A stretch of DNA of 64,000 nucleotides from Gemmatimonadaceae bacterium (lineage in GTDB: Bacteria; Gemmatimonadota; Gemmatimonadetes; Gemmatimonadales; Gemmatimonadaceae). The position numbers and the translations under genes are program-made. Each line of letters starts with the position of its first letter. Position 1 is the stretch's first letter. The stretch lies in NCBI GenBank assembly GCA_019637445.1, contig JAHBVS010000001.1, positions 529,586 to 593,585 of the forward strand, read 5' to 3'. Under the pieces are notes generated by a model. It was not told the origin of the DNA. It saw nothing but the letters and a program-made list of their open reading frames with translations, and did not search any database. Shown here in pieces: positions 2,382-53,837 of the stretch.

Positions 2382-3602
2382 CTACTCGTGGCGGATCGCG
2401 TCGATCGGTGAGAGACGCGCCGCCCGCAGCGCCGGATAGAGTCCGAAGAGCAGCCCGATCACGATGCTTACCACGACGGCGAAGCCCACCGTCGGCAACG
2501 TGATCGCGGGCTGCACCGGCGCGTTGGTCTGCGCGCGCATGATCGCCGCGGCCAGGAAGGCGATGCCGAGCCCCGTCACGACGCCCACCGCGGCCCCGAG
2601 CCCGGTGATGGCCACGGACTCGGCGAGGAACTGCACCAGGATGTCACCGCGCCGCGCACCCGTCGCCTTACGGATGCCGATCTCACGCGTGCGCTCGGCC
2701 ACCGACGCGAGCAGTACGTTCATGATGCCCACGCCGCCCACCAGCAGCGACACGCCGGTGATGGAGGCCATCAACAGCTTGAAGATCCGCATCGCCGTCG
2801 CGGTCTGCTCCGCACGCGCACGGCGATTCACGACCTCGACTTCCTCCTTCCACTTCGCGCCAAATCGCTGCGCCGCCCAACCCTCGGCGAGCACGCGAAT
2901 CGTGTCCACGTCCTCGATTCGCCGCGCTGTGATGGCCAGCGAGGGCGTGACGCGCGGGCCGAGCGCGCGTGCGGCGTCCTCGACGGGGATCCAGGCCACG
3001 AGGCCCAGCAGCGTGGTGTCGGGGGCGGCGATGCCGACGACGGTGTGCGGATTGCCACCGAACGTCAGGCGCCGTCCGAGCACAGGTTCGCGCGAGGACG
3101 TGGAGTCGGCGAGCAGCGCGGCAGCGGCTGCGTCGGAGAGCACGACGGCGGCCGTGTCGGCATCTCGCAGCCAACGGCCGAGCGCCACCGCTGGCCGGTT
3201 CTGCGGCACGGGCTCCGCCTGCACCGCCTGGAGGATGTAGCCGCGCAGGCGCCCCGTGGGCTCCGTCGCCACCAACGCGCCGCCGCCGGCCCGCAGGGTC
3301 ACGTGCTGGGCCTGCGGCAGCAACGCGGCCAGCGTACGGGCATCCTCGCGCGTGAGCACGGGGATCGAGTCGCGACGCAGGAACTGGCCGTCCACGCGCA
3401 CACCCGTCACCGGGGTGACGCCGACGCTGAGGAAGTCCGTCGTGCGTTCGATCTGCTCGCGGGCGAACTTCTCGACGCCGTCGCCCATGGCGAGGACGGA
3501 GACCATCGCGGCGACGCCCATCACCACGCCGAGGGTGGAGAGGACGGTGCGCAGCGGGTTGGCGCGGAGAGCTTCGAAACCGACGGAGAGATTGCGGGCC
3601 AT
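2382..3602 (-). CDS. ABC transporter permease, MacB/FtsX family
   Basis: N-terminal RTVLSTLGVVMGVAAM TM, periplasmic domain, GGVGIMNVLLASVAERTREIGIRKATGA motif, C-terminal PALRAARLSPIDAIRHE. Confidence 0.93.
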   Translation of the reverse strand: MARNLSVGFEALRANPLRTVLSTLGVVMGVAAMVSVLAMGDGVEKFAREQIERTTDFLSVGVTPVTGVRVDGQFLRRDSIPVLTREDARTLAALLPQAQHVTLRAGGGALVATEPTGRLRGYILQAVQAEPVPQNRPAVALGRWLRDADTAAVVLSDAAAAALLADSTSSREPVLGRRLTFGGNPHTVVGIAAPDTTLLGLVAWIPVEDAARALGPRVTPSLAITARRIEDVDTIRVLAEGWAAQRFGAKWKEEVEVVNRRARAEQTATAMRIFKLLMASITGVSLLVGGVGIMNVLLASVAERTREIGIRKATGARRGDILVQFLAESVAITGLGAAVGVVTGLGIAFLAAAIMRAQTNAPVQPAITLPTVGFAVVVSIVIGLLFGLYPALRAARLSPIDAIRHE

Positions 3603-3653
3603 GGCGGGACTACGGAGGGGCGCGCTGGGCGTTTCGCGGCTGGTGGCCGACGC

Positions 3654-3683
3654 TTGAATGGAGGGGTCTGCCCCGATTATACT
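3654..3683 (+). promoter_or_regulatory. Sigma70-like promoter of tRNA-Asn
   Basis: TTGAAT-N18-TATACT ending 10 bp before the tRNA. Confidence 0.6.
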
Positions 3684-4269
3684 ACGAGTCTATTCCGGCG
3701 TAGCTCAGTTGGTAGAGCAGGTGACTGTTAATCACCGGGTCCTCGGTTCGAGTCCGAGCGCCGGAGCTGAGAAGGTCTGCGAGGAGTGTCATGCGGAAGG
3801 CGCGTATCTCCTGTGCGGGCTGAGGGTTACCGGGCACTGGTGCGTAGCGCAGCACCAGTGCCCGCTGCGTTCTGCCGGCGCGTCGCCACTCACCCGTAGC
3901 GGAAACCGTAGCAGAGCGTTTCGGCTCCAAGGCGTTGTGCATGGCGATGTGGTCGCGCCGCTTCATCACGGCAAGGTTCTCGGGGCGGTTGTCCTGCTTG
4001 TCGTCGTTCAGGTGGTGCACGCACTCATCGGCGCGCAGTAGCCGGCCGAGCACCATCTCCGCGACGACGCGGTGCTCGTAGAGGATCGCCCTCGAGCCGC
4101 TCGGCACCCGCACGTAACCGCGGTGATCGACGTGACGGGAGCCGCGGACCGGCAACGCGCCTGGCGTGGCGATGAAGCGGTGCCGTGCGCAGACGACCTG
4201 GCCGTCGGGCAGCACCCAACCACCGGCCAGCTTCGTGGTCCCGCACTTGAGGCACGCGCGCGTCGTCAC
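3682..4269 (-). CDS. HNH endonuclease (HNH_3-like) whose frame crosses the att core; 195 aa in lysogen
   Basis: GTG overlaps integrase stop (GTGA) with GGAG upstream; YEHRVVAEMVLGRLL...VHHLNDDKQDNRPENLAVM...H..MH motif. Confidence 0.82.
   Translation of the reverse strand: MTTRACLKCGTTKLAGGWVLPDGQVVCARHRFIATPGALPVRGSRHVDHRGYVRVPSGSRAILYEHRVVAEMVLGRLLRADECVHHLNDDKQDNRPENLAVMKRRDHIAMHNALEPKRSATVSATGEWRRAGRTQRALVLRYAPVPGNPQPAQEIRAFRMTLLADLLSSGARTRTEDPVINSHLLYQLSYAGIDS
3694..3766 (+). tRNA. tRNA-Asn (GTT); 3' half supplied by the prophage
   Basis: Acceptor TCCGGCG/CGCCGGA, D-arm AGCTCAGTTGGTAGAGC, anticodon stem GGTGA/TCACC with GTT at 3727-3729, T-arm CTCGG-TTCGAGT-CCGAG; no encoded CCA. Confidence 0.97.
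3725..3768 (+). repeat. attL (17-bp exact core CTGTTAATCACCGGGTC at 3725-3741, then imperfect match)
   Basis: 38/44 identical to 53794-53837. Confidence 0.93.
3831..3864 (+). terminator. Phage-supplied hairpin downstream of tRNA-Asn (terminator or processing site)
   Basis: Perfect 13-bp stem CGGGCACTGGTGC/GCACCAGTGCCCG, 8-nt loop; weak U-tract. Confidence 0.5.
3894..3912 (+). promoter_or_regulatory. Putative integrase arm-type sites (attL side)
   Basis: CCGTAGC twice at 12-bp period (3894, 3906); same arrangement near attR. Confidence 0.55.
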
Positions 4270-5399
4270 TGCTGCGCTCCGCGACGCTTCGCCGCCTGCA
4301 TGAGATCCTCGGCCCGCGGCCGGTACTTCGCATAGAGCTTCATGGCCATCACTTCGTTCGCGTGGCCGAGGTTCGCCGAGATCAGCTTCAGCTCGTAGCC
4401 GCGCCGGGCCATCTCCACGCCGAACGAGTGCCGCGCGCCGTGCAGCGTGTAGCCCTCGCGGATCGGCACACCCTGCGCCCGCAGCGCTTCGCAGGCGGCC
4501 GCCTGCGCATCCGCATGGGCGCCGTGCGCGACGGGAAAGAGCGGAGCATCGGGCAGGAAGCCCCCGCCCCGCACGTACGAGGCGAAGAGATCCCAGCACG
4601 CGTCGTCGAGCACGATCGCCTGGCGGTCGCGGTTCGCATTCTTGCGGCCGTGCGCCCACACGACCTTCGTCGCGAGGTCCACGTCGCGCCGGCACATCGC
4701 GAGCGCGGCCTGCATCTCGAGGCCGGCCCCGTGCCGGATCGCCGCCAGCGCACGATGCGCACCCTCCGGCATCGCGTGCAGCAGGCGCACCACGTGCGGC
4801 CACTCGGCGTAGCGGTCCTTCGTGCGGTTCGCCGGCGGCAGCTTGAGTGTGCGCAACGGATTGCTCGGCAGCCGACCCGTCTCGACGCAGTAGTCGAGGA
4901 AGTGCATCCACGCGGCCGCGTGCCGGCGGCGGTTGGTCCCGCTGCCAGGCAACGCGTCGAGTCGCGCGCGCAGCGCCGGCGTCGTCAGCTGCGAGCGCCA
5001 GAGCCCGCCGGCGACGAGCGCCTGCACCTGCGCGCGGTACTTGCGGAACGTCTCGCGCGAGAACGTCTCGTCGCGCACGCGCGCCTCGAGCGCCGCGACC
5101 CACGGCTCCAGTGCCTCCGCGAGGTTGAGGTCCTCGAGCGTGGCCTGCAGCTCGTCGAGCGTGCCGCCGAGCCAGGCGTCGTAGACCGCACCGACGCGGA
5201 GCCGGCGCGCGAGGATGGCGTCTCGTACCCACAGTAGGCGCTTGCCGCGCCCGCCCAGGAGGTCGAGCATCTTCTGCATCTGGTCGGCCGTCGGCTTGTC
5301 GCGAGTGCCGGAGCTCACGCGGGCATACGGGCGCGCCGGATCCCCGGTCGGGATCGTCAGCGTCCAGGTGAGCTCGTCCTTCTTGCGGTAGGGTGTCAT
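4266..5399 (-). CDS. int: Tyrosine recombinase (integrase), 377 aa, atypical box I
   Basis: HGARHS (HxxR), LGHA, C-terminal YAKY, upstream GRK; ATG overlaps upstream stop; adjacent to attL. Confidence 0.92.
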   Translation of the reverse strand: MTPYRKKDELTWTLTIPTGDPARPYARVSSGTRDKPTADQMQKMLDLLGGRGKRLLWVRDAILARRLRVGAVYDAWLGGTLDELQATLEDLNLAEALEPWVAALEARVRDETFSRETFRKYRAQVQALVAGGLWRSQLTTPALRARLDALPGSGTNRRRHAAAWMHFLDYCVETGRLPSNPLRTLKLPPANRTKDRYAEWPHVVRLLHAMPEGAHRALAAIRHGAGLEMQAALAMCRRDVDLATKVVWAHGRKNANRDRQAIVLDDACWDLFASYVRGGGFLPDAPLFPVAHGAHADAQAAACEALRAQGVPIREGYTLHGARHSFGVEMARRGYELKLISANLGHANEVMAMKLYAKYRPRAEDLMQAAKRRGAQQ

Positions 5400-5641
5400 C
5401 CGACCTTCTTGAGCGCGCGCACGCGCGAGAGCGGGGAGTTGCGGTTCGAGCGAGCCTCGAGCAGTTCCTCGACGCGCGTCGCATCGTAGAGTCGGTGGCC
5501 GCGCACCGTCCCGTTGGGAACGGTGACGACGGCCGAGGCGAAGAATGGTCGCACGCGGTACCATGCCGCACGCTTCGAGGCGCCCGCGAGCTTGAGCTTC
5601 TCACGCAGCTCCTGTTCGGACAGCAGCGAGTCCAGACTCAT
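5396..5641 (-). CDS. Probable excisionase / recombination directionality factor
   Basis: 81-aa basic protein coupled (ATGA) to integrase; RLYDATRVEELL wing-like motif. Confidence 0.55.
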   Translation of the reverse strand: MSLDSLLSEQELREKLKLAGASKRAAWYRVRPFFASAVVTVPNGTVRGHRLYDATRVEELLEARSNRNSPLSRVRALKKVG

Positions 5642-5952
5642 GCCTCTCCCTGGGCCGTCTCGGGCCCGACGATGCGGTCCACGATCGTCGCCTGCAGGCG
5701 TCCGATTTCCTCGCGCTGTTGCCGGAGCGTCTCCGTGGCTTCGCCAAGCGCGCGACGGTGACTCGCGATCAGCTGCTCGGTCGGCGACTCGATGCCGATC
5801 GGCGCGCGGTGTCCACTGGGGCACGTGAGCGTGCCCTGCGTCGCGACGGTCACGTCGAACAGCCGCTGCTCCACCGCGAACGGCGTGCCACAGCCTGGGC
5901 ACGTCGTCACGGTGAAGCGCACCGGTGCGTCGAAGGTCGCGCGCGCAGACAT
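5638..5952 (-). CDS. Zn-finger plus coiled-coil phage protein
   Basis: CPGC...CPSGH then heptad helix; coupled to neighbours. Confidence 0.7.
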   Translation of the reverse strand: MSARATFDAPVRFTVTTCPGCGTPFAVEQRLFDVTVATQGTLTCPSGHRAPIGIESPTEQLIASHRRALGEATETLRQQREEIGRLQATIVDRIVGPETAQGEA

Positions 5953-5953
5953 G

Positions 5954-7807
5954 CTACTTGGCCTTCACCAGGTGCTTGGTGACGGCCTTCGTCATGTCGA
6001 ACATCGAGATCGCGTCCTTGCCGCCGAAGATCGGGCGCAGCTTCTCATCCGCCTTGATCATGCGGCGGTTCTTCTTGTCCTGCAGGCCGTGCTTCCTGAT
6101 GTACGCCCACAGCTTCTTGATGAGCTCGGTGCGCGGCATCGGCTTCGTGCCGACGACGGCGGCGAGCTTGGCGTCTGGCGTCACAGGCTGCATGAACTGC
6201 GCGGCTGGCTGTCGCTTGGCGACCTTCTTCTTCGGCGCCTTGGTCACCTTCACCGCCTTAGGTGCCGCGGAGGCCTTCGGCGGTGCTGTCGGCTGCTCGG
6301 CCTTCGGCGCCTCTGCCTTCGGCGTGTGCTTCTTCAGGATCGCGCCAGCGTCGATGCCGAACTGCTTGGCCATCGGCTTGAGGCGCTGCTCGAACGTCCA
6401 GCTGTCGTCGAGGCGGAAGTAGCCACCGAACGCGCGCTGCGCGAAGAGACGGCGCACCAGGTCATCGACTGTGCGCGAGGGAAGCTTGGCTAGCCGAGAC
6501 TTCCCAAGCGGCTCCCGGATGTCGCTCGAGTCCTTGATGATCGCCTGCAGCAGCGTCAACGGCTTGGCTTTGGCGATCGCAGCGAAGAGCGCGTCGAGGA
6601 GCTCCGGGGTCGCGGCTGTAAGTGCCGCCGCCTGCGCCTTCCGCGCAGCGTCCTCCTTGGCCTGCTGCTCACGCTGCTTCCGTGCGACCTCGGCCTCGCT
6701 GACCTTCTTGCCGGCCTTGCTCGTGAGCTCGCCGCGCCGGGCCTTCTCGCGGTCCTCGCGCCGCTTCACGTGCTGCGGCCAGTGCCGCTTGCAGCGGTCC
6801 TTGTTGGTGCAGACCAGGAGCGCGTGCCCGCGCGAGGCGTCGCCGGCGAACACGATACCCAGCACCGCGTAGTCGCACGTCGGCTGCCCTTGCTCGTTCT
6901 CCGCCCGCTTCCAGGAGAGGGGCCCGATCACCTTCTCGCTGCCCTTCACGCGGGGATCCACGTGCCCGAACGCGATGAAGACCTGCCGGCGCTTGGCCGC
7001 CGTCGCCGTCTCGATGGCCGCGGCCGTCGCCGGCAGCAGGTGCTCCAGCTCCGGGTGCGCCAGGTCGACGCGCACGTTGCGGTCGATCCACGCCCTCAGC
7101 TCGCGCACGGTGCGCGCCTTCTGGCCGCCGTTGTCCGGGCCGAGCAGCTTGAGCTCGTCCGGCGCGTGGCCCTCTGGCTGAAAGAGGCCTTCCTTGATCG
7201 CGCGCTTCTGGTCCGAGGTCCCGATCTTCGCGAGCTCGAGCGCATGGCCCAGCTCGATGCGGCCGTCCTCGAGGAGGCTCACGGCCTTCTCGTCGAGCTT
7301 CAGCAGCCGCAGGCGGTCGCGCACGTAGTCGACCGAGACGCCCGAGCGCTCGGCGATCTTCTCGACGGTCCAGCCCTCGAGGCGCTTCTGCAGGAGCGCA
7401 TAGCCGCGCGCCTCCTCCATCGGCTGCAGGTCGCGCCGCTTCAGGTTCTCGAACGTCAGCGCCTCGAGGAACTCGGCGTCGCCGAGCGGCCGCACGACGC
7501 ACTGCAGGTGCGTGAGGCCCGCCTTGCGCGCGGCACGGAGGCGGGTGGCGCCGGCAGCGAGCTCGTAGCGGCCGATCGCTTTCGGGTTCGGGCGCACCAG
7601 CGCGTGCGTCAGCTGGCCGCTGGCGAGCATCGACGCCGCGAGCTCGTCGATCCATGCCGCGGGGAAGTGCTTGCGTGGGTTGTCCGGGCTCTCGTCGATC
7701 AGCGAGAGGCCGATCGCCTCGACGCGCGCCTCGCCCGCGCGCTCCATCGCGCGCATCGAGGCCTCGCGGTTGGTCGGAGCGTCCTGTCGTTCCATGGTTG
7801 CCGTCAT
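5954..7807 (-). CDS. ParB/Spo0J-like protein fused to C-terminal SWIB/MDM2 domain
   Basis: NPRKHF, YELAAGATRLRAA, ENLKRRDL, HTH; K/A/P linker; FMQPVTPDAKLAAVVGTKPMPRTELIKKLWAYIRKHGLQD...MFDMTKAVTKHL. Confidence 0.9.
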   Translation of the reverse strand: MTATMERQDAPTNREASMRAMERAGEARVEAIGLSLIDESPDNPRKHFPAAWIDELAASMLASGQLTHALVRPNPKAIGRYELAAGATRLRAARKAGLTHLQCVVRPLGDAEFLEALTFENLKRRDLQPMEEARGYALLQKRLEGWTVEKIAERSGVSVDYVRDRLRLLKLDEKAVSLLEDGRIELGHALELAKIGTSDQKRAIKEGLFQPEGHAPDELKLLGPDNGGQKARTVRELRAWIDRNVRVDLAHPELEHLLPATAAAIETATAAKRRQVFIAFGHVDPRVKGSEKVIGPLSWKRAENEQGQPTCDYAVLGIVFAGDASRGHALLVCTNKDRCKRHWPQHVKRREDREKARRGELTSKAGKKVSEAEVARKQREQQAKEDAARKAQAAALTAATPELLDALFAAIAKAKPLTLLQAIIKDSSDIREPLGKSRLAKLPSRTVDDLVRRLFAQRAFGGYFRLDDSWTFEQRLKPMAKQFGIDAGAILKKHTPKAEAPKAEQPTAPPKASAAPKAVKVTKAPKKKVAKRQPAAQFMQPVTPDAKLAAVVGTKPMPRTELIKKLWAYIRKHGLQDKKNRRMIKADEKLRPIFGGKDAISMFDMTKAVTKHLVKAK

Positions 7808-8349
7808 CCTGCCCTGCCCTCCATTCGGTTGGTGCGGGCCGCGAACAGCTGGCCCGCGATGCTGATCACCTCCGCCGACCCTGCGTAGAGCCCGTGCTTG
7901 GTCAGAACTGGCACCGCGTGCTCCGCCGCGGCGCTAAGCAGTTGCAGGTACTGCTGGAGATCGGTCGCTACGCCGCGGCGCACGCCGACCTCGACCATCC
8001 ACGTGCCGTTGCCCTTCCGCCGCTTCGTCAGCGTGAGCGCGAAGTGGACGAGCGGCACCGCCAGAAAACCGCGATCGCCAGGCGGCAGGCCGGAGGTGTC
8101 GAGAGGCCGCGCCAGCGCGCCGCTCGTGAGCAGCCCGCCCTCGATCTCGACCAGCGGCACGAAGCCGCGCACGAGCTGGGCATCCGGCTGCCGCGTGCCG
8201 CGGAAGCGGAGCGCGAAGGGCCCGACGTTGGGCTCGTGCGCGTGCACGAGGTCGCAGTACGAGACATCGAGCACGAGTGGCTCGTCGAGCGACAGCCGGA
8301 ACGTCCGCTCGATGGGGCGTTCGCTGCGCACGGTGGCGGGTGCCGTCAC
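7804..8349 (-). CDS. Hypothetical phage protein
   Basis: 181-aa ORF with start/stop overlaps on both sides. Confidence 0.7.
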   Translation of the reverse strand: MTAPATVRSERPIERTFRLSLDEPLVLDVSYCDLVHAHEPNVGPFALRFRGTRQPDAQLVRGFVPLVEIEGGLLTSGALARPLDTSGLPPGDRGFLAVPLVHFALTLTKRRKGNGTWMVEVGVRRGVATDLQQYLQLLSAAAEHAVPVLTKHGLYAGSAEVISIAGQLFAARTNRMEGRAG

Positions 8350-8624
8350 TTCTCCTCCAGCTCGAGCAGCAGCTCGCCGAATCGATGGTCCACGGTGTCG
8401 CCGAGCTCGCAGATCTTCGCGACCCGCTGGAGCTTCCGGACCGCCATGAAGAGCGCGATCGACTCCAGCGAATGGTTGCGCGGCGCGCGCGGCGCCTGGG
8501 TGATCGCGATGTTGAGCTGGTCGCCGATCGCATCGAAGGCGAGCGCGAGCTTCGTGGACGCGGCGCCGGCGTCGAGCTCCTGCTGCTCTTGGATCCTGAT
8601 GTCCCGCTCATTCGGAGGCGTCAT
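8346..8624 (-). CDS. Hypothetical phage protein (92 aa)
   Basis: ATG at 8624 overlaps upstream TGA. Confidence 0.65.
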   Translation of the reverse strand: MTPPNERDIRIQEQQELDAGAASTKLALAFDAIGDQLNIAITQAPRAPRNHSLESIALFMAVRKLQRVAKICELGDTVDHRFGELLLELEEK

Positions 8625-9097
8625 AGGTCGACGTCCACCGGCGGGCCCAGGAAGCGGCAGCGCTCCCAGTGCGTATGGAAGACGGACGGATGCCGATTGC
8701 CGGCGTCCTGCAGGCGCGCGTGCACGAACTCGTGCCGCCACGCGGCGTGCTCGTCTAGGCTCGGCCGCACGACGACCATGTGCGCGTCGCGGAAGTAGAA
8801 GCCCATCCAGAGCAGCGCGCTGTGGGACTCGAGCCAGCCGGGAGTGCCAGGCGGCACGCGCCAGAGGCGCAGCGTGGTGTCCGGGCTCTCGTCGAGACCG
8901 ACGCAGCGCATGACGTCGCGCCACTCCGCCTGGATGGAGTCCGTCCACGGGATCTGCTCGCCGCCGTAGAGCTGGACGGGCAGCGGCGCGATGTAACCGC
9001 GAGGCGTCAGCATGCCGGCGAGCACGAGCAGGATCAGTCCTGTGCCGAGGACCTTTGCGACACGCTGCCGGCGCGCGCGATCGGGGCTAGTGGCCAT
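8621..9097 (-). CDS. Membrane-anchored putative zinc metallopeptidase (HExxH)
   Basis: N-terminal basic stretch plus hydrophobic helix VLGTGLILLVLAGML; WRHEFVHARLQDAGNRH. Confidence 0.65.
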   Translation of the reverse strand: MATSPDRARRQRVAKVLGTGLILLVLAGMLTPRGYIAPLPVQLYGGEQIPWTDSIQAEWRDVMRCVGLDESPDTTLRLWRVPPGTPGWLESHSALLWMGFYFRDAHMVVVRPSLDEHAAWRHEFVHARLQDAGNRHPSVFHTHWERCRFLGPPVDVDL

Positions 9098-9614
9098 TGG
9101 CGATCTCCTGGCGCACGCGCTGCATATCGTCGGTCGGCTGTTCGTGCCTGAGCAGACCACTCCCCTGGGCTCGCACGCGCTTGAGGACCTCGTCGGCCTC
9201 CGGGGCACAACCGAGGACACCCGAAGCCCACCCGATTAGCTCGGAGATCACGCCGATCAGCCGCTGCCGCTGGGTCCGGAGCTCGTGGTCGCTCGTCGCG
9301 AACGCGCGCTCCTTCGCCTCGACCTTCTCTAGCAACGCCGCCTTCTCCGCCTCGGCGACGTCGCGCCACCACTGCTGGCGCTCGGCCTCGCGCAGCGCGG
9401 CCGCGATGAGCTCGCGCCGCGGCGGAATCACGTTGCCGGCGGCGCAGTCCTTCGCGGAGTCCAGCAGCTGCCGCTCCATCGCGTCTTCCGGGTGCGGCAT
9501 CGGCGGCATCACCGCGCGCGCGGAGCGGTCCGCCTCGAGCGCGAGCTGCGCGAGGTCGATGTGCAGGACCGACGGCGCGCCGTTGGTCAGGTAGTCGATC
9601 GCGGGCGCGCTCAT
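9087..9614 (-). CDS. Hypothetical coiled-coil phage protein
   Basis: ATG overlaps upstream stop (ATGA). Confidence 0.65.
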   Translation of the reverse strand: MSAPAIDYLTNGAPSVLHIDLAQLALEADRSARAVMPPMPHPEDAMERQLLDSAKDCAAGNVIPPRRELIAAALREAERQQWWRDVAEAEKAALLEKVEAKERAFATSDHELRTQRQRLIGVISELIGWASGVLGCAPEADEVLKRVRAQGSGLLRHEQPTDDMQRVRQEIANGH

Positions 9615-9949
9615 GCGGAGACCCTCCGGCCGCACCGCGGCTCGAAGCGCAGGAGCAGTCGGCCCGTCGTGCGGTCGATGTGCTTCTGGATGCCGAGGAT
9701 GTCGTGCGTGAAGTCGAACGCCGGCAGCGTGATCAGGCGCTCGAGGTCCAGGGGCGCATCGTTCGCCATGACGGCGGCGAGATCCATCTCCAGGCTCGTC
9801 TGCGGATCCACGGCCCCGGTGTCGGCCGTTAGGTCGACGATCCCGTCACGGACGGCTCGGCGCGCAATCGCGGCGATCACCGCGTTGTCGTCGGCGCTCA
9901 CGTTGAAGCTGACCGGGCGCCGGCGGCGCTTCTTCGTCGCGGCGCTCAT
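9611..9949 (-). CDS. Conserved phage protein (DUF6874-like)
   Basis: LEMDLAAV...PLDLERL...FDFTHDILGIQKHIDRTTGRL..F.PR motif. Confidence 0.7.
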   Translation of the reverse strand: MSAATKKRRRRPVSFNVSADDNAVIAAIARRAVRDGIVDLTADTGAVDPQTSLEMDLAAVMANDAPLDLERLITLPAFDFTHDILGIQKHIDRTTGRLLLRFEPRCGRRVSA

Positions 9950-10479
9950 GCGGTAGCCCTCACCGGCAGCGCCATCGCCTGCAGGCGCAGCGCGCGTGCC
10001 CGCTCAGACATGGTGGCGGCCACGCGTGCGCAGAGATCGGCTTCCTCGTAGAGGCCGGCGGTGGTCGCGCCGTTCACGCGGCGGCGCATCTGCAGCACGT
10101 CCTCGTCGGCGTCCATGCGCTGTTCCTCCAGGTCGATGGCATCGAGGGAGCGCGGGACCGCCCCCGCGAGCTCGAAAGCCGTCTCGTACAGGACCTCCGC
10201 GAACCGCAGCAGCTCGGCGAGGTTCGCCCCCGACCGACGGAGCCGCTCCATCTGGTGCATCACCACCGCCAGCGCCGACTGCCCCGCGTAGGCCTTGCTG
10301 TGCGCCTTGTCCAGCTGGTGGTCCCGCCCGCCGGCGTGCAGCGCGCGCCGCACGGCGCCCCGCTTCATCACCGCGGCGTAGGCCCGCCGGACCACGGCGT
10401 CGCAGTCCCCCACGAACCGCACCGCCTCGCGCATCGCGCGGCGTCCTGCAAAGCCACCCGCCTCCGTTGCTCGCGCCAT
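9946..10479 (-). CDS. Hypothetical helical phage protein, possibly regulatory
   Basis: AGGAGG 5 nt before ATG 10479; stop overlaps next ATG. Confidence 0.65.
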   Translation of the reverse strand: MARATEAGGFAGRRAMREAVRFVGDCDAVVRRAYAAVMKRGAVRRALHAGGRDHQLDKAHSKAYAGQSALAVVMHQMERLRRSGANLAELLRFAEVLYETAFELAGAVPRSLDAIDLEEQRMDADEDVLQMRRRVNGATTAGLYEEADLCARVAATMSERARALRLQAMALPVRATA

Positions 10480-10555
10480 CCCCGCCTCCTGGTCAATCGT
10501 CCGGTATGCCCTGTGCCCTGCCCTGCCCATCCGATGCCCGCGCTCCACCACGCCG

Positions 10556-10759
10556 CTAGGCGGCGGGGAGTGCGGGAGTGTTCTGCTTGCGCTTGAATCG
10601 CTCGACGTCGCGCGAGATCGCGGCGTACATGAAGGCGCTGCGCGTGAGGCCCTTGGCCTTGGCGGCCGCGTCGAGGTCCTCGACCTCATCCACTGGGTAG
10701 CGGAAGGTGAGGATCGCGCCCAGTCCCTTGCGCTTGCGACGGGTGACGTTGGCTGACAT
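10556..10759 (-). CDS. Ribbon-helix-helix (Arc/CopG-like) regulator in the Cro position
   Basis: ILTFRYPVDEVEDLDAAAKAKGLTRSAFMYAAI fits the RHH pattern; divergent from repressor. Confidence 0.8.
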   Translation of the reverse strand: MSANVTRRKRKGLGAILTFRYPVDEVEDLDAAAKAKGLTRSAFMYAAISRDVERFKRKQNTPALPAA

Positions 10760-10805
10760 TGTCCCTACGAGTGCAGAGGTAATACCTACCGTCAAGCTCT
10801 GGCCA

Positions 10806-10834
10806 AGAATATGGCCGGACCTTTACGGTGTCAA
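10806..10834 (-). promoter_or_regulatory. Strong leftward early sigma70 promoter
   Basis: TTGACA-N17-TATTCT on - strand, 46 bp upstream of the RHH ATG. Confidence 0.8.
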
Positions 10835-10874
10835 GCCCTGCCCGATTCCAGGAGCTCGGTTGACCTCACAGGAC

Positions 10875-11333
10875 ATGTTGGTAGAGCAGGCGCGGCAGGC
10901 AGCGCGCAGGGCGGTGGACGGTTCGAGCCTTCGGCGCGTGTCGTCCGAGATCGGCATCTCGCACCAGACGCTGGCCGACTTCATCGCCGCTGGCTCAACG
11001 CGAAGCCCGTACGGATCGTCGAGGGAGAAGCTGTTGGCATGGGCGCGGGCCAACGGCGCGCGCGAGCCCGGGGCTGATCAGCTGAACTTCTACCGCGGGA
11101 AGCAGGAAGCGCTGATGGGCATGATGCAGTACATCGTCTCACAGCAGGCGGAGATCGGAGCCTTCATGGACCGACTCCGTTCAGGAGAACCGGAGGATGA
11201 GCGACGGCCACGCCAGCGCACCCACGAGGAGCTCAGCCGAGAAGTCGAAGGTGCTGAAGCTGACGCCGAACTTCTTGCTCGACTGCAGTCTCTGCAGAAG
11301 TCCGCTGAGAAGAAGGGGAAGAAGCGGGCGTGA
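10875..11333 (+). CDS. XRE-type HTH repressor candidate (no S24 peptidase domain)
   Basis: SLRRVSSEIGISHQTLADFIAAG HTH, divergent from RHH gene. Confidence 0.78.
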   Translation: MLVEQARQAARRAVDGSSLRRVSSEIGISHQTLADFIAAGSTRSPYGSSREKLLAWARANGAREPGADQLNFYRGKQEALMGMMQYIVSQQAEIGAFMDRLRSGEPEDERRPRQRTHEELSREVEGAEADAELLARLQSLQKSAEKKGKKRA

Positions 11334-12321: not shown

Positions 12322-13380
12322 ATGAGTGGCATCATGGAGCGCGTAATCGACGAGACTCCCGTCGCGATCATCGACTTCGAAACCACGGGCCTCTCGCCCA
12401 AGTCACTGTGTAGAGTGGTTGAGGTGGCGGTGGTCCGGGTGAATCCCAATGGTGGCCACCACGTCGTGTACGACTCGCTGGTGGATCCTGGCGGGCCCGT
12501 TGCCTGCTCCAGCATTCACGGCATCTTCGACGAAGACGTTGTCGGAGCTCCGTCGTTCGTCGATGTCCTCGAGCCGCTGGCAGCCGCGCTCCGCGGGTGC
12601 GTCGTGCTCGCATTCAATGCCTCGTTCGACATGGCGTTCCTCCACTCCGAACTGGCCTTCGCGCTCAAGCGATCGGAGTCGCCGCTGCGGGTGCCGTACG
12701 GCTGCCTGATGTATATGCGCCCCGCCATCGGCATTGGGCCGCGCTGCGGGCTGCACGACGCCGTCTCTCACCACGACATCCCAGCGCCGGACCATCGCGC
12801 CGCACACGACGCGCTCGCCGGCGCACTGCTGTGGCAAGTCTATCGAGAGCACATGCGCGCGCGCGGCATCCGCACGTTCGGCGATCTCGCGGCGCGGAAG
12901 CACTACAAGTTCATGGAGAGCTGGGAGTTCGATCCGCTGCGTGGTGATGCCCTTGGGGACGTCGCGGTCCCCGCGAGCCGACTGCACTCGAAGCCACGCG
13001 TCACGCCGATCACGTACCCCGACCACGATGCAGTCGCAGCGGTGCAAGAAGCCGCTGCAGCGGAGCACTCGAATCGAGTGCGCCGGCGCGTGCGCGCGCT
13101 CCGCATCGGCGGCTATGCCCATGCACTGGTGGACGCGTTCGCGGATGCCATCATGACGCCGGAAGAGTTCCACTCCCTCGAGCGACTGCAGCGCGAACTC
13201 GAGCTCACTCCCGGCGAGATTCGGTCGGTGCATGCCGACTTCTACTCGGCGGTCTTGATGACATGCGTCGAGGATGGGTTCGTCTCGCACCAGGAGTCGA
13301 AGAACATCGCCGAGGTTGGCAGCATTCTTCGGGACCTCGGCTGGGCACCGGGCGATAACAGCGCACCCGCCGCGCCGTGA
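12322..13380 (+). CDS. DEDDh 3'-5' exonuclease (DnaQ-like) fused to TerB-like domain
   Basis: IIDFETTG, AFNASFD, HRAAHDA; C-terminal tandem DAIMTPEE / DGFVSHQE helical motifs; GAGGAG RBS. Confidence 0.85.
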   Translation: MSGIMERVIDETPVAIIDFETTGLSPKSLCRVVEVAVVRVNPNGGHHVVYDSLVDPGGPVACSSIHGIFDEDVVGAPSFVDVLEPLAAALRGCVVLAFNASFDMAFLHSELAFALKRSESPLRVPYGCLMYMRPAIGIGPRCGLHDAVSHHDIPAPDHRAAHDALAGALLWQVYREHMRARGIRTFGDLAARKHYKFMESWEFDPLRGDALGDVAVPASRLHSKPRVTPITYPDHDAVAAVQEAAAAEHSNRVRRRVRALRIGGYAHALVDAFADAIMTPEEFHSLERLQRELELTPGEIRSVHADFYSAVLMTCVEDGFVSHQESKNIAEVGSILRDLGWAPGDNSAPAAP

Positions 13381-13595
13381 TCCGCCGGATCCGGACCTAC
13401 GGGGGCGAGGGCGCGGGATCCCTGCTCGAGGTGGAGGGGCACGCCCGGGTGGGGGATCTCATCCGGGTGCCGCTGAAGGACCGCCCTGGCCACGTGGCCG
13501 AGTACGAGCTCGCACGGGATCCCAACGACACCAGCGGCACCGGCCTCTGCCTGGTCTGGCTGCGGGTGGTGGAGACGGAGCGAGAGCGCGCGTGA
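13377..13595 (+). CDS. Small hypothetical protein (72 aa)
   Basis: GTGA overlaps at both ends. Confidence 0.6.
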   Translation: MIRRIRTYGGEGAGSLLEVEGHARVGDLIRVPLKDRPGHVAEYELARDPNDTSGTGLCLVWLRVVETERERA

Positions 13596-14725
13596 GTCCC
13601 GATCCGTTCTTCAAGGGTGTCAAGGAGTGGGGCCACTACAAGCACCGCATCCTCTCCAAGTACCTGACTATCTGGGTGCGCAAGCTCGGGTCACGGCACA
13701 AGACGCTCGCCTTCGTCGACTCGTGCGCCGGGTCCGGGTACTACGACGACGACACGGCAGGGTCCCCAATCATCGCGGCGCGCCTGAACGACGCGCCCGA
13801 CCGCGGCAATCACGCGCGGGTGATGGTCTTCGCCTGCGAGCAGAACGATGAGAACTACGCGCGGCTCGCCACGGCATTGCGGCCGTGGATCCAGCGGTCG
13901 CCGCAGCTCGCGGATGCGCTTCACGGCCCGTTCCAGCTTTTCCTCGAGTCGATCGTGCAGGTCACGGAGCGCTGGCCGACGTTGTTTTTCATCGACCCGT
14001 ACGGGATGAAGGACGTGAGCATCGACGCCCTCACACCGATCCTGGAGAACCAGAGCGCGCGCAAGGAGCTCATCGTGCGGGTGCCGCCCGGCATCCTCAG
14101 CCGCTGGTGGGGGCGCCTGCAGGAGCGACCGACCAGCGAGCGCCACGCGCGCGAGCTCGACGCCTTCCGCCGCAACCTGGAGGCGTGCAACGTCGACCCG
14201 GCGTTCGCGGAGATGTTGAAGTCCGCCGAGTTCACCGGCGCGGACCGGCAGCAGGCCTTGCTCGAGCGCTACCTGGTCCCGATCTACGAGCGCTTCCGCT
14301 GGGTGCAGCTCGTGCCGATCAAGGCGACGTTCACCGGCGCGCCGCGCTACTTCATCCTGCACGCGACCGACAGCCCCGATGGCTGCGCCTACCTCAACGA
14401 CGTGGCGAGCGCGCTGCGTGACGAGCTCTATGCGACCACGGAGCAGCGGCGCGATGCCGCGCTGGGACAGGGCAGCCTCTTCGGGCCGCTGCCGGCGCCG
14501 CGCACCGTCTCGATGCGCGAGCTCGAGGAGCTGCTGCTCGAGGAGCTCCGGCACACCGGCGGCGCCCCATGGATCGAGCTGCGCGCCATGCTCGCGTCGG
14601 TCTTCGGCCCGGAGTTCCGGAAGAAGGACCATGTGCAGGCTCTACGACATCTCGTGTCGCGCCACCAGGCCCGGCCCTTCGAGGGCGCAGAGCCCGAGGA
14701 CCGCGAGACCGTCACGCCGGCCTAG
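13592..14725 (+). CDS. Three-Cys-motif partner protein (TcmP), SAM-dependent methyltransferase-like fold
   Basis: KHRILSKYL, FVDSCAGSG, GSPIIA, FFIDPYG; paired with DUF5131 gene. Confidence 0.85.
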   Translation: MSPDPFFKGVKEWGHYKHRILSKYLTIWVRKLGSRHKTLAFVDSCAGSGYYDDDTAGSPIIAARLNDAPDRGNHARVMVFACEQNDENYARLATALRPWIQRSPQLADALHGPFQLFLESIVQVTERWPTLFFIDPYGMKDVSIDALTPILENQSARKELIVRVPPGILSRWWGRLQERPTSERHARELDAFRRNLEACNVDPAFAEMLKSAEFTGADRQQALLERYLVPIYERFRWVQLVPIKATFTGAPRYFILHATDSPDGCAYLNDVASALRDELYATTEQRRDAALGQGSLFGPLPAPRTVSMRELEELLLEELRHTGGAPWIELRAMLASVFGPEFRKKDHVQALRHLVSRHQARPFEGAEPEDRETVTPA

Positions 14726-15468
14726 GCCCGCAGGAGCTCGCGCGGATACTCGTCCCAGGTGCGGCCGTCGAGCTCACGCCCACCCGCCTTGGGTGTGAAG
14801 CCGCCCCACTGCTTCCAGAAGAAGGCGACACCTGCGCGCTTGCACATGTCGCGCAGCTCCCGGGCCCAGGCGATATCGACGGGCCGCGCGCCGGCGCCGC
14901 TCTCGCCGCCGCCAATCACCCAGTCGATGCCGGAGACGTCGAGCTCGGCCAGCGAGCCCAGCAGCGGCTCAGCGCTGATGAACTTCACGACGGCCGGAAC
15001 ATCACGCAGTGCATCCGCGCGCCGCGCGACCCGCATGTCCTCGATCGACGTGCCCATCCAGATGTTCGGGGTCCAGTCGAGTTCATCGCCGAGCCGCGCG
15101 GCCCGCTCCGGCCGCTTCGTCAGCACCTGGAACTGGTGCTGCGGGCACGCATTCATGACCTCGAACACCATGCGGATCTGTTCAAGGCTGAAGTGCGCGT
15201 GGAAGACGTCGCTCATGGAGTTCACGAAGACGCGGCGCGGCTCCCGCCACTTGAACGGCACCACTAGGCGCTCCTCCCAAAACCGGGGCGCGAAGGGGTC
15301 GTTGCGATTTGCCTCGGTGTCCTTCACCGGCGGGTGCGCGAGATAACGATGGCGCGTGCGCCGCTGCGCGACGACGTGGGCGTAGCAGTTGTCGCACCCC
15401 GCCGAAATCTTCGTGCACCCGGTCATCGGGTTCCAGACTTCGTCGGTCCATTCGATGGCAGTGGGCAT
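14722..15468 (-). CDS. DUF5131 (phage Gp37/Gp68) three-Cys radical-SAM-like protein
   Basis: WNPMTGCTKISAGCDNCYA, VFVNSMSDVFH, LTKRPER, SAEPLLG, GGESG, FFWKQWGG. Confidence 0.93.
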   Translation of the reverse strand: MPTAIEWTDEVWNPMTGCTKISAGCDNCYAHVVAQRRTRHRYLAHPPVKDTEANRNDPFAPRFWEERLVVPFKWREPRRVFVNSMSDVFHAHFSLEQIRMVFEVMNACPQHQFQVLTKRPERAARLGDELDWTPNIWMGTSIEDMRVARRADALRDVPAVVKFISAEPLLGSLAELDVSGIDWVIGGGESGAGARPVDIAWARELRDMCKRAGVAFFWKQWGGFTPKAGGRELDGRTWDEYPRELLRA

Positions 15469-46852: not shown

Positions 46853-47181
46853 GCGTCGAGGGCCTCGTGCAACGCCTGGTGGCAGGGCCGGCAGAGCCAG
46901 CGGACCTGCAGCGGCTGGTTGTAGTCGTCGTGGTGCATCTCGGGGGTGCGCTCACAGCCTGGCGTCTCGCACGGCTGCTCCAGGAGTTGGCCGCGGGCGA
47001 GCGCGACCCCCGCATGCCGCCGCGCCCGAACCCGGCGACGCGCCTCGTCGGAGAGCTCAGCGTCCTTCGGCCGGTTCGCGCGCATGTACGCGGCGTGGCA
47101 CGCGCGGCAGTAGCGCTGGCCCTCGCGATCGCGCGGCCCCTGGCAGCGGGAACAGGTCCCGTCGTTCCGGCGCTGCCTCAT
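46849..47181 (-). CDS. Cys-rich HNH-like protein
   Basis: HHDDYNQPLQVRWLCRPCH. Confidence 0.7.
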   Translation of the reverse strand: MRQRRNDGTCSRCQGPRDREGQRYCRACHAAYMRANRPKDAELSDEARRRVRARRHAGVALARGQLLEQPCETPGCERTPEMHHDDYNQPLQVRWLCRPCHQALHEALDA

Positions 47182-47236
47182 GTTTCACGGTCAACATTAG
47201 GTTCCACGGCAACGCAAAACTCCGGGCGCGATCGCA

Positions 47237-53793: not shown

Positions 53794-53837
53794 CTGTTAA
53801 TCACCGGGTCACAGGTTCGAGTCCTGTCGCCGGAGCT
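53794..53837 (+). repeat. attR: displaced original 3' half of host tRNA-Asn
   Basis: Core identical to 3725-3741; T-arm ACAGG-TTCGAGT-CCTGT; followed by host terminator. Confidence 0.93.

Follow-up and report, generated by a model that had tools for sequence, protein, structure and literature searches.

The window analysed here is a stretch of 64,000 nucleotides from a Gemmatimonadaceae bacterium (assembly GCA_019637445.1, contig JAHBVS010000001.1, positions 529,586 to 593,585 of the forward strand), and all positions below are counted from its first letter. It contains a tailed prophage of about 50 kb, and the prophage gene at 5954..7807 on the minus strand encodes a protein, here called ParB-SWIB, in which a ParB N-terminal domain (ParB_N) and a ParB helix-turn-helix (HTH) domain share one chain with a C-terminal SWIB/MDM2 domain. 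This three-part architecture (ParB_N + HTH_ParB + SWIB) is certain. The fusion is recurrent and undescribed; it belongs to the known theme of orphan ParB clamps and is not categorically new. Our confidence is high for the architecture, the phage context and the capture of SWIB. The best explanation of its function is an orphan ParB clamp, gated by a nucleoside triphosphate (NTP), which would act on phage DNA and carry an effector resembling a nucleoid protein. For this mechanism as a whole we estimate a probability of about 0.45.

Domain architecture and nucleotide pocket

The gene is a single unbroken open reading frame (ORF) with an ATG start, encoding 617 amino acids (aa) plus a stop codon. 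Pfam identified the NTP-binding ParB N-terminal domain (PF02195) at aa 29-123 (7439..7723, minus strand as are all parts of the gene) with 52.9 bits against a cut-off of 26.3, and the DNA-binding HTH domain (PF17762) at aa 126-204 (7196..7432) with 53.6 bits against 22.6. The NCBIfam model TIGR00180 (parB_part) gave 103.4 bits, above its cut-off of 58.45, and with all three models over their curated cut-offs the protein belongs to the ParB/RepB/Spo0J superfamily. The RepB model of NCBIfam scored far under its cut-off, and the Pfam scan of the protein found no ParB C-terminal dimerisation domain. At the other end, SWIB (PF02201) was found at aa 541-613 with 92.3 bits against a cut-off of 25, covering profile positions 2-74 of 74. 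With its N-cap this segment spans aa 535-617 (5957..6205) and is strongly basic (+19/-7, net charge about +12). It is preceded by a K/A/P-rich basic tail or linker at aa 496-534 (6206..6322), with 11 K+R and 2 D+E, which is predicted to be disordered from charge and from the per-residue model confidence (pLDDT).

Structure prediction is matched with these assignments. The AlphaFold2 model, built from 26 family sequences, had a mean pLDDT of 85.6, and predicted disorder was limited to aa 214-226, 427-432 and 509-531; pLDDT was below 50 at aa 509-531 and about 95 at aa 540-610 in SWIB. Foldseek against the PDB matched the N-terminal half to 6sdk, 7bm8, 7bnk, 6t1f, 7nfu and 8qa8 with E values from 1e-13 to 1e-9. 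Among these are ParB-CDP (6sdk), Caulobacter crescentus ParB (7bm8 and 6t1f), Noc and KorB, and the N-domain was 35-36% identical to 6sdk and 7bm8. The C-terminus matched the SWIB domain of At5g14170 (1v31) and chains of MDM2 and BAF60, with TM scores normalised to the target of 0.71-0.77 for 1v31, 9gfk and 1t4e. The preliminary description of this DNA had read the same domains from the letters alone, namely a ParB N-domain with the motifs AGATRLRA and ENLKR, an HTH, a K/A/P-rich linker and a complete SWIB-like domain. Both motifs were present exactly as quoted, and the searches confirmed each of the domains.

Between the HTH and the tail lies a region that was used to define a protein family. 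An exhaustive HMMER search of 1.84 billion representatives returned 580 clusters at E<=1e-30, and the best 150 of these 580 were nearly all proteins of about 500 aa without SWIB, aligned over aa ~30-510 of the query. We define family 1 as proteins with the ParB core, a W/C/C/C/H module, a helical C-domain and a basic tail, and conservation was counted in 169 members. C311, C333, C339 and H342 were invariant (169/169), and W299 was kept in 168/169. ParB-SWIB carries these residues and aligns over the full length, so it is a member itself. The module is an alpha/beta unit at aa 228-345 (6773..7126) with pLDDT above 90. It is followed at aa 346-495 (6323..6772) by a long charged helix (aa ~371-413) and a helical C-terminal domain, as given by predicted secondary structure. 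In this domain R452, K481 and G484 are nearly invariant in the family, and it closes with a conserved AKxFGID..A motif, after which comes the K/A/P-rich tail common to every member.

The preliminary description had left about 250 aa (aa ~205-495) as sequence of unknown nature. This holds so far as relatives are concerned, as the middle module had no Pfam match at E<=1, no significant structural match in the PDB (best E 1.6) and no match among the viral structures of BFVD (best E 0.41). However, the region is conserved and confidently folded, with a pLDDT of 86.9 when aa 225-500 were modelled separately. The middle module marks out a large family of ParB proteins in phages.

In ParB proteins the nucleotide is held by residues of boxes I to III. 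Box II of ParB-SWIB reads A-G86-A-T-R89-L-R91-A, with G86 to A92 at 7532..7552, and it keeps the GxxR core while the Glu and the first Arg of canonical GERR are replaced. Box III, at 7436..7450, reads E120-N-L-K-R124, so that both parts of the P-motif, GxxR and ENxxR, are present. Among family-1 members the Gly and Arg of box II were each kept in 168, and the Glu, Asn and Arg of box III in 146, 165 and 163, respectively. The canonical Arg pair was kept in 127/169, and the wider family mostly has G-[H/E/A]-R-R. Thr at position 88 occurred in 19/169 and did not track with the presence of SWIB. N43, in place of the Gln of box I, is family-wide (167/169). Three canonical catalytic or gating residues are thus lacking: Gln (N43), Glu (A87) and the first Arg (T88).

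Mutants of C. crescentus ParB allow these residues to be weighed. Seven of the ten mutated residues are retained, R60, S74, G79, R104, E135, N136 and R139 corresponding to R45, S59, G64, R89, E120, N121 and R124 in ParB-SWIB. CTP (cytidine triphosphate) binding is weak or absent in the mutants S74A, G79S, R60A, R104A, N136A and R139A, and E135A binds CTP but is defective in hydrolysis (PMC8367383). Two of the replaced positions were also mutated in that work: Q58A (equivalent to N43) binds CTP with defective hydrolysis, and E102A (equivalent to A87) binds and loads but does not hydrolyse, which locks the clamp (PMC8367383). BisD of the integrated element ICEclc has a comparable box II, G92-N-T-R95, together with ENELR; it binds and hydrolyses CTP, and R95A loses binding (PMC12409273). 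BisD slides about 50 kb and acts via an added C-terminal effector domain (PMC12409273). The CTP motif of ParB-SWIB had been called degenerate, which is correct for A87 and T88, but because BisD with G-N-T-R binds and hydrolyses CTP, degeneracy does not predict lost function. By this comparison, box II is compatible with a working clamp that is perhaps slow to open.

Origin and recurrence of the SWIB fusion

SWIB was present in nine of the 169 family-1 proteins, this one and eight other clusters. A search with the tail and SWIB returned 3978 clusters at E<=1e-8, and the closest relatives were all standalone bacterial proteins of 88-126 aa with identity up to 76%. The named ones came from Gemmatimonadota, Acidobacteriota, Betaproteobacteria and others. 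They share the form MA-[K/A-rich tail]-KRKPNAAFMKPVTPDA...SWIB, and ParB-SWIB aligns to them across the junction (KRQPAAQFMQPVTPDA) and into the basic tail. Because the match to standalone bacterial SWIB proteins runs through the junction, we read tail and SWIB, with high confidence, as a captured cellular standalone gene. The preliminary description had proposed this origin for linker plus SWIB, and the alignments refine it. SWIB-less family-1 relatives already end in a K/A/P-rich tail, so both fusion partners had a basic tail and the join sits between the two. The simplest history would be read-through or recombination between them. The codon usage of SWIB is fully local, with a GC content at third codon positions (GC3) of 0.96.

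In a neighbour-joining (NJ) tree of the family-1 backbone, SWIB-bearing members were found at three positions, interleaved with SWIB-less members, and in the NJ tree of SWIB the fused domains were not monophyletic. Both trees suggest that SWIB was captured or exchanged more than once; as they had no bootstrap and SWIB is a short domain of high conservation, we claim no number of captures.

A mobile Cys-rich cassette (CxxCGCTEAKACKGGCAWVSTxPPVCSNPKC) was found in the basic tail of seven proteins (P0005-7, P0009, P0011, P0012 and P0014). Its position varies: before SWIB, after SWIB (P0014), or in a tail without SWIB (P0011 and P0012). It is gained and lost in the same tail across the backbone tree, and the two members scanned with Pfam (P0005 and P0014) gave no match for it. 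A metagenomic protein of 896 aa (P0160) had six tandem SWIB domains with a Pfam total of 514 bits and no ParB. SWIB has been called rare in prokaryotes outside Chlamydia (PMC12445093, 2025), and the chlamydial standalone protein was given as the only bacterial type (PMC4154389), whereas about 4000 SWIB clusters (the 3978 above) were found here.

The fusion is not limited to family 1. A scan of IMG/VR with SWIB found three viral contigs, one of which (L089, IMGVR_UViG_3300048997_000495, 41 kb) encodes at 2390-4282 a protein of 630 aa with ParB_N, HTH_ParB and SWIB. GERRW is canonical in it, and the Cys/His positions of family 1 have no aligned counterpart in its middle. The family of this protein, family 2 (L089/P0307-P0426), comprised 1825 proteins at E<=1e-10. 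In its best 120 clusters a CxxC...CxxxxC ribbon was invariant (120/120), together with GERR and ENLQR, and 23 of them carried SWIB; these proteins are about 620-670 aa long, and those without SWIB about 500-590 aa. When profiles of SWIB-less members were compared between the two families, the alignment covered only the first ~240 residues. The best family-2 member scored 153 bits to ParB-SWIB in BLASTP and lies outside the list of the best 150 family-1 clusters, which ends at about 203 bits. Family-2 fusions were found in early operons of temperate phages; an HTH_3 switch precedes them, and the loci have a serine recombinase but lack ParA.

In total, at least 32 clusters at 90% identity carry the fusion, on two backbones whose homology is confined to the ParB core. 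Because SWIB recurs on two backbones, and at three positions of the backbone tree, the combination appears to be selected. None of the cultured phage and plasmid records searched had a ParB-SWIB fusion; Acidovorax phage Aval and Variovorax phage VarioGold have SWIB-less family-2 proteins, and the VarioGold gene lies in a leftward operon adjoining the integrase. Full-text literature searches found no description of the fusion, and it was absent from the text and supplements examined of a 2025 survey of ParB-fold fusions. Sources label such proteins merely as "ParB/RepB/Spo0J family partition protein". The preliminary description knew of no ParB-SWIB fusion in a phage, and added that the proposal would fall if the fusion proved common and characterised. 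The literature searched indeed holds neither a report nor a characterisation, but the fusion is recurrent and far from unique.

These occurrences also settle whether an assembly or frameshift error joined a ParB gene to a separate SWIB gene, a possibility which the preliminary description had raised against itself. The join falls in low-complexity sequence, where such an error could hide, and nothing else favours it. Against it, the frame is unbroken, and GC3 is even, 0.93 for the gene and 0.82-0.98 for each segment, in a window with a GC content of about 70%. Moreover, the same fusion is found in eight other family-1 and 23 family-2 clusters, from independent samples and assemblers, and one fusion cluster is present on 15 contigs. 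An artefact is refuted by these independent occurrences, its probability is negligible, and the architecture is genuine.

The phage contig L092 (IMGVR_UViG_3300014205_002220, 3229-5249) encodes an SNF2-related helicase (PF00176 + PF00271), and its end is overlapped by the gene of a protein of 195 aa in which a K-rich linker joins a CxxC...CxxC segment to SWIB. This pair of SNF2 and SWIB genes in a virus of bacteria recalls SWI/SNF. In L093 (GCA_964400745.1, contig CAYNVY010000004.1) a family-2 ParB-SWIB gene has a beta-clamp homologue (DNA_pol3_beta) directly upstream and a diversity-generating retroelement pair (bAvd + RVT_1, 12879-14626) about 1 kb downstream.

Prophage setting and neighbouring genes

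The element is integrated in a tRNA-Asn(GTT) gene (3694..3767, plus strand), whose 3' half at 3725-3767 is the left attachment copy (attL). The right copy (attR, 53794..53836, plus strand) is a second tRNA-Asn 3' half with a 17-nt exact core and further conserved blocks. The T-stems of the two copies differ yet stay paired (CCTCGG..CCGAGC in attL, CACAGG..CCTGTC in attR); therefore, the phage supplies a functional but distinct tRNA end. Between the copies lie genes for integrase, DnaB, large terminase, portal, protease and major head protein. The element is bordered by host-type genes on either side, which resume at 54.5 kb on the right. These data confirm a tailed prophage of about 50 kb integrated in tRNA-Asn, as was implied when the preliminary description spoke of an excised circle. 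The last gene before attL encodes a tyrosine integrase (4266..5564, minus strand; PF00589, phrog_1).

In a leftward operon (5638..10795, minus strand), whose start and stop codons overlap or abut, ParB-SWIB is followed by one further gene and then by the integrase. The order is a 79-aa ORF, a 247-aa ORF, a DUF6874 gene, ORFs of 182 and 181 aa, ParB-SWIB and a Cys-rich ORF of 104 aa; the first resembles ribbon-helix-helix proteins, a label read by eye. The operon is syntenic with phage contig L088, at 39-59% identity. At its head there is a sigma-70-like promoter (TTGACA-17-TATTCT, 10806..10834, minus strand), which is a consensus match only; one such match was found where 0.2 were expected in 7 kb. 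A divergent ORF at 10707-11333 (plus strand) contains an HTH. We infer that this is an early-left operon of the lambda PL type, and the preliminary description, which had called the factor early, is supported by this early-type operon with a promoter match at its head and a divergent HTH ORF.

The 104-aa ORF (5638-5952, minus strand) lies between ParB-SWIB and the integrase and has a CxxC...C..H pattern. It is conserved at the same relative place in L088 (39% identity) and had no family match. Such a location would be fitting for an excisionase or a directionality factor.

Further into the prophage, a gene at 14722-15468 (minus strand; phrog_2045) is related to the Pfam DUF5131 genes of the phage loci L084 and L087 (38-41% identity). 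It scored 312 and 296 bits against the PADLOC candidate-defence models PDC-M41B and PDC-M30B, respectively. A DUF5131 gene lies a few genes from the ParB-like gene in L084, L087, L093 and L094, which span both ParB families. For ParB-SWIB and its six operon neighbours PADLOC gave no hits, and on this ground a known defence system was rejected for them.

Proposed mode of action and comparison with known systems

We infer nucleotide binding, clamping, the target DNA and the action of SWIB as follows. The HTH would recognise a phage-specific loading site, different from canonical parS. An NTP, most likely CTP, would then close the N-domains of the dimer at the GxxR/ENxxR pocket, while its other end would be held by the helical C-domain together with the middle module, which zinc would stabilise. 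The closed ring would slide off the loading site and accumulate along DNA. With N43 in place of the box I Gln and A87 in place of the box II Glu, slow hydrolysis and ring opening are probable, which would give long-lived clamps. Each clamp would bear the disordered basic tail and the captured SWIB as an effector on the clamped DNA, and the effector may compact or coat DNA like a nucleoid-associated protein, or recruit a host partner of the cellular SWIB. As the outcome, phage DNA would be organised or marked early, around excision, replication or the establishment of lysogeny. The clamp part is supported by the ParB core, which is 35-43% identical to structurally solved CTP-binding ParBs. The effector part has a parallel in plant SWIB-4, in which an H1-like basic motif lies beside SWIB, and which binds DNA, compacts nucleoids and complements an Escherichia coli hns mutant (PMC4154389).

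A bolder form of this explanation holds that temperate phages repeatedly fused a host SWIB nucleoid protein to a site-loaded, slow-hydrolysing ParB clamp and so spread a chromatin-type effector along chosen DNA. The phage genome would thereby be organised or protected, or else the phage would gain hold of the proteins with which the host's SWIB interacts. We regard this form as unlikely.

Several points weigh against the clamp explanation. R103A of C. crescentus ParB has weak or no CTP binding (PMC8367383), and ParB-SWIB has T88 there. According to the 2025 survey, nucleotide specificity is unpredictable from sequence or AlphaFold3, and some members of the fold bind ATP or GTP. The four invariant residues look like a zinc site (C-x21-C-x5-C-x2-H), and aa 346-495 are the likely dimerisation region, conservation being the sole basis for both. 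No partner of a bacterial SWIB was found in the literature, in which the function of chlamydial TopA SWIB is described as unresolved. A loading site could not be singled out either: palindrome and repeat searches gave no recurrent palindrome and only high-GC noise. The window's one parS-like site (TGTTGACCGTGAAACA, 47181-47196) has two mismatches and one perfect half-site, but 8 of 100 shuffles did equally well, so it is not significant on its own. Its place is between genes, directly ahead of the replication-module operon with a small gene and the DnaB helicase. A search for expression data found none.

The label carried by its relatives would make ParB-SWIB a classical partition protein, serving an episomal form of the phage with a borrowed host ParA. 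In favour of this, the protein scores above the TIGR00180 cut-off, relatives are named as partition proteins, and the PHROG families are labelled "ParB-like partition protein". However, the phage is integrated at tRNA-Asn with its own integrase. ParA, or a deviant Walker A motif (KGGxxK[ST]), is absent throughout the window, whose sole P-loops are in a host UvrA-like gene and the phage DnaB, and ParA is also absent in eight related phage loci. The ParA-binding motif (L/F/I)G(K/R)G(L/F/I) is absent in ParB-SWIB and in all 169 family-1 and 120 family-2 members (289 in all). No cluster of canonical parS sites was found, though the cognate site may be of another kind, and the Pfam scan found no ParB C-terminal dimerisation domain. 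Partition was thus rejected as the main explanation and is extremely unlikely. Because the operon is of the early type and there is no ParA partner, a role outside partition is likely for this orphan ParB. Such a role could also be that of a static DNA binder or nuclease of the ParT/Osa type, which would act independently of nucleotide and have no clamp cycle. T88 speaks for it, since C. crescentus ParB has an Arg at this place and no longer binds CTP when that Arg is lost, and CTP-independent ParB-like proteins have been reported. Against this, GxxR and ENxxR are kept and near-invariant in family 1, BisD is functional with G-N-T-R, and the canonical RR is present in 127/169 members, so we hold a static binder to be very unlikely.

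The main rival to the clamp with a nucleoid-type effector is a long-range transcription regulator, which overlaps with it and differs in output alone. Here the sliding clamp would switch phage promoters, like BisD/BisC, KorB/KorA and VirB, and SWIB would be a protein-protein module contacting RNA polymerase, a phage co-factor or a host silencer. On mobile elements, BisD, KorB and VirB all act as ParB-type CTP switches of the orphan or regulatory kind, and Foldseek matched ParB-SWIB to KorB. The early operon with its adjoining switch-like region also fits, as does the classical use of SWIB/MDM2 in binding peptides. But no conserved partner gene of the BisC/KorA type flanks the family members, and most of them lack SWIB, so it is not a core regulatory surface. 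We therefore consider regulation a serious but doubtful alternative. Takeover of the host is more doubtful still, and we judge it improbable: in that case ParB-SWIB would load on the host chromosome or mimic the host SWIB and disturb the nucleoid, segregation or DNA-based defence. Its N-terminal half is 38-45% identical to chromosomal ParB/Spo0J, its SWIB, at up to 76% identity, is close enough to cellular standalone SWIB to compete for partners, and roles in anti-defence or between phage and host are suggested in the 2025 survey for the ParB-fold fusions of prophages. The recognition helix (GVSVDYVRDRLRLL), however, differs from chromosomal ParB at most positions, hence canonical parS is an unlikely target. 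The empty PADLOC result for the gene and its operon neighbours also stands against takeover, though PADLOC models defence and not anti-defence.

Research on the orphan CTP switches of the ParB type that mobile elements carry (BisD, KorB and VirB) moves fast, and with each of them a further mode of long-distance action on DNA came to light. Environmental bacteria have SWIB proteins in abundance, with essentially no function assigned to them. The fusion on two ParB backbones may serve as a Rosetta stone, pointing to SWIB acting on DNA-bound machines, as in the TopA- and TopoIII-SWIB fusions. ParB-SWIB is a tethered, site-specific version of SWIB, which could be tracked easily by chromatin immunoprecipitation sequencing and truncated easily, and the interest lies mainly in this tie between a functionally obscure bacterial domain and a tractable DNA-loading machine. 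If the bolder form of the clamp explanation is true, these proteins would be the first experimental handle on the function of widespread bacterial SWIB proteins, and an effector-spreading clamp would be the bacterial-virus counterpart of targeted recruitment of chromatin remodellers. Two large phage ParB families are also defined here, one with an invariant Cys3His module and one with a Cys4 ribbon, neither of which has a Pfam model or structural relative. A practical limit is that the fusion occurs in no cultured phage, where only the SWIB-less family-2 versions of Aval and VarioGold are found.

Among known systems, the best matches to aa ~27-208 are chromosomal ParB/Spo0J and Noc (6sdk, 7bm8, 6t1f, 1vz0 and 7nfu; 35-43% identity), with the same GxxR/ENxxR pocket and the same HTH. 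In contrast to chromosomal ParB, ParB-SWIB has about 400 extra residues, a divergent recognition helix, and neither ParA nor a ParA-binding motif. The Noc model (TIGR04285) gave 94.9 bits against a cut-off of 315, and that of PRTRC-system ParB (TIGR03734) 81.2 bits against 278.6, matching the ParB core only. KorB of RK2 and VirB of Shigella likewise use a ParB core for a non-partition role on a mobile element, and KorB (8qa8/8qa9) is a fold match, but identity is 26-27%, they have known partners (KorA, TrbA) and targets (H-NS), and they lack SWIB. BisD of ICEclc from Pseudomonas putida is also an orphan ParB on an integrated mobile element (PMC12409273). It has about 550 aa, with the ParB N-domain and HTH, a long linker and a helical C-terminal dimer/effector part without structural relatives. 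As in ParB-SWIB, its box II has Thr for the first Arg and no Glu (G-N-T-R and G-A-T-R), and ENxxR is kept. It differs in belonging to a conjugative element instead of a phage, and in its dedicated partner BisC, whereas family 1 has no conserved neighbour. BisD has neither SWIB nor the Cys/His module, and with the C-terminal halves set aside the resemblance is in function and box II only.

On the SWIB side, the tail and domain align end to end with standalone bacterial SWIB proteins (up to 76% identity), and the alignment takes in the KRxPxAxFMxP junction; those are free proteins of 88-126 aa, whereas ParB-SWIB has the module tied to a ParB that is site-specific. Plant SWIB-4 shares the basic H1-like motif beside SWIB, and it binds and compacts DNA. 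The topoisomerase-SWIB fusions (chlamydial TopA, NF004966; proteobacterial TopoIII, NF011313/PRK14724) have a similar design of a DNA-tracking enzyme, a basic low-complexity linker and a C-terminal SWIB, and in chlamydial TopA (CtTopA) an unstructured region also precedes SWIB. Residues 472-613 of ParB-SWIB match the last 140 positions of NF011313 with 85.4 bits against a cut-off of 1088, and NF004966 gave 70.5 bits against 868, both being matches to linker and SWIB only. The catalytic partner there is a topoisomerase and not a ParB. Family 2 differs in its canonical GERR and in a four-Cys ribbon, CxxC...CxxxxC, where family 1 has C...C-x5-C-x2-H. It is otherwise alike, without ParA and in an early operon, and its fusions of about 620-670 aa repeat the whole order of ParB_N, HTH, Cys-rich module, helical region, linker and SWIB.

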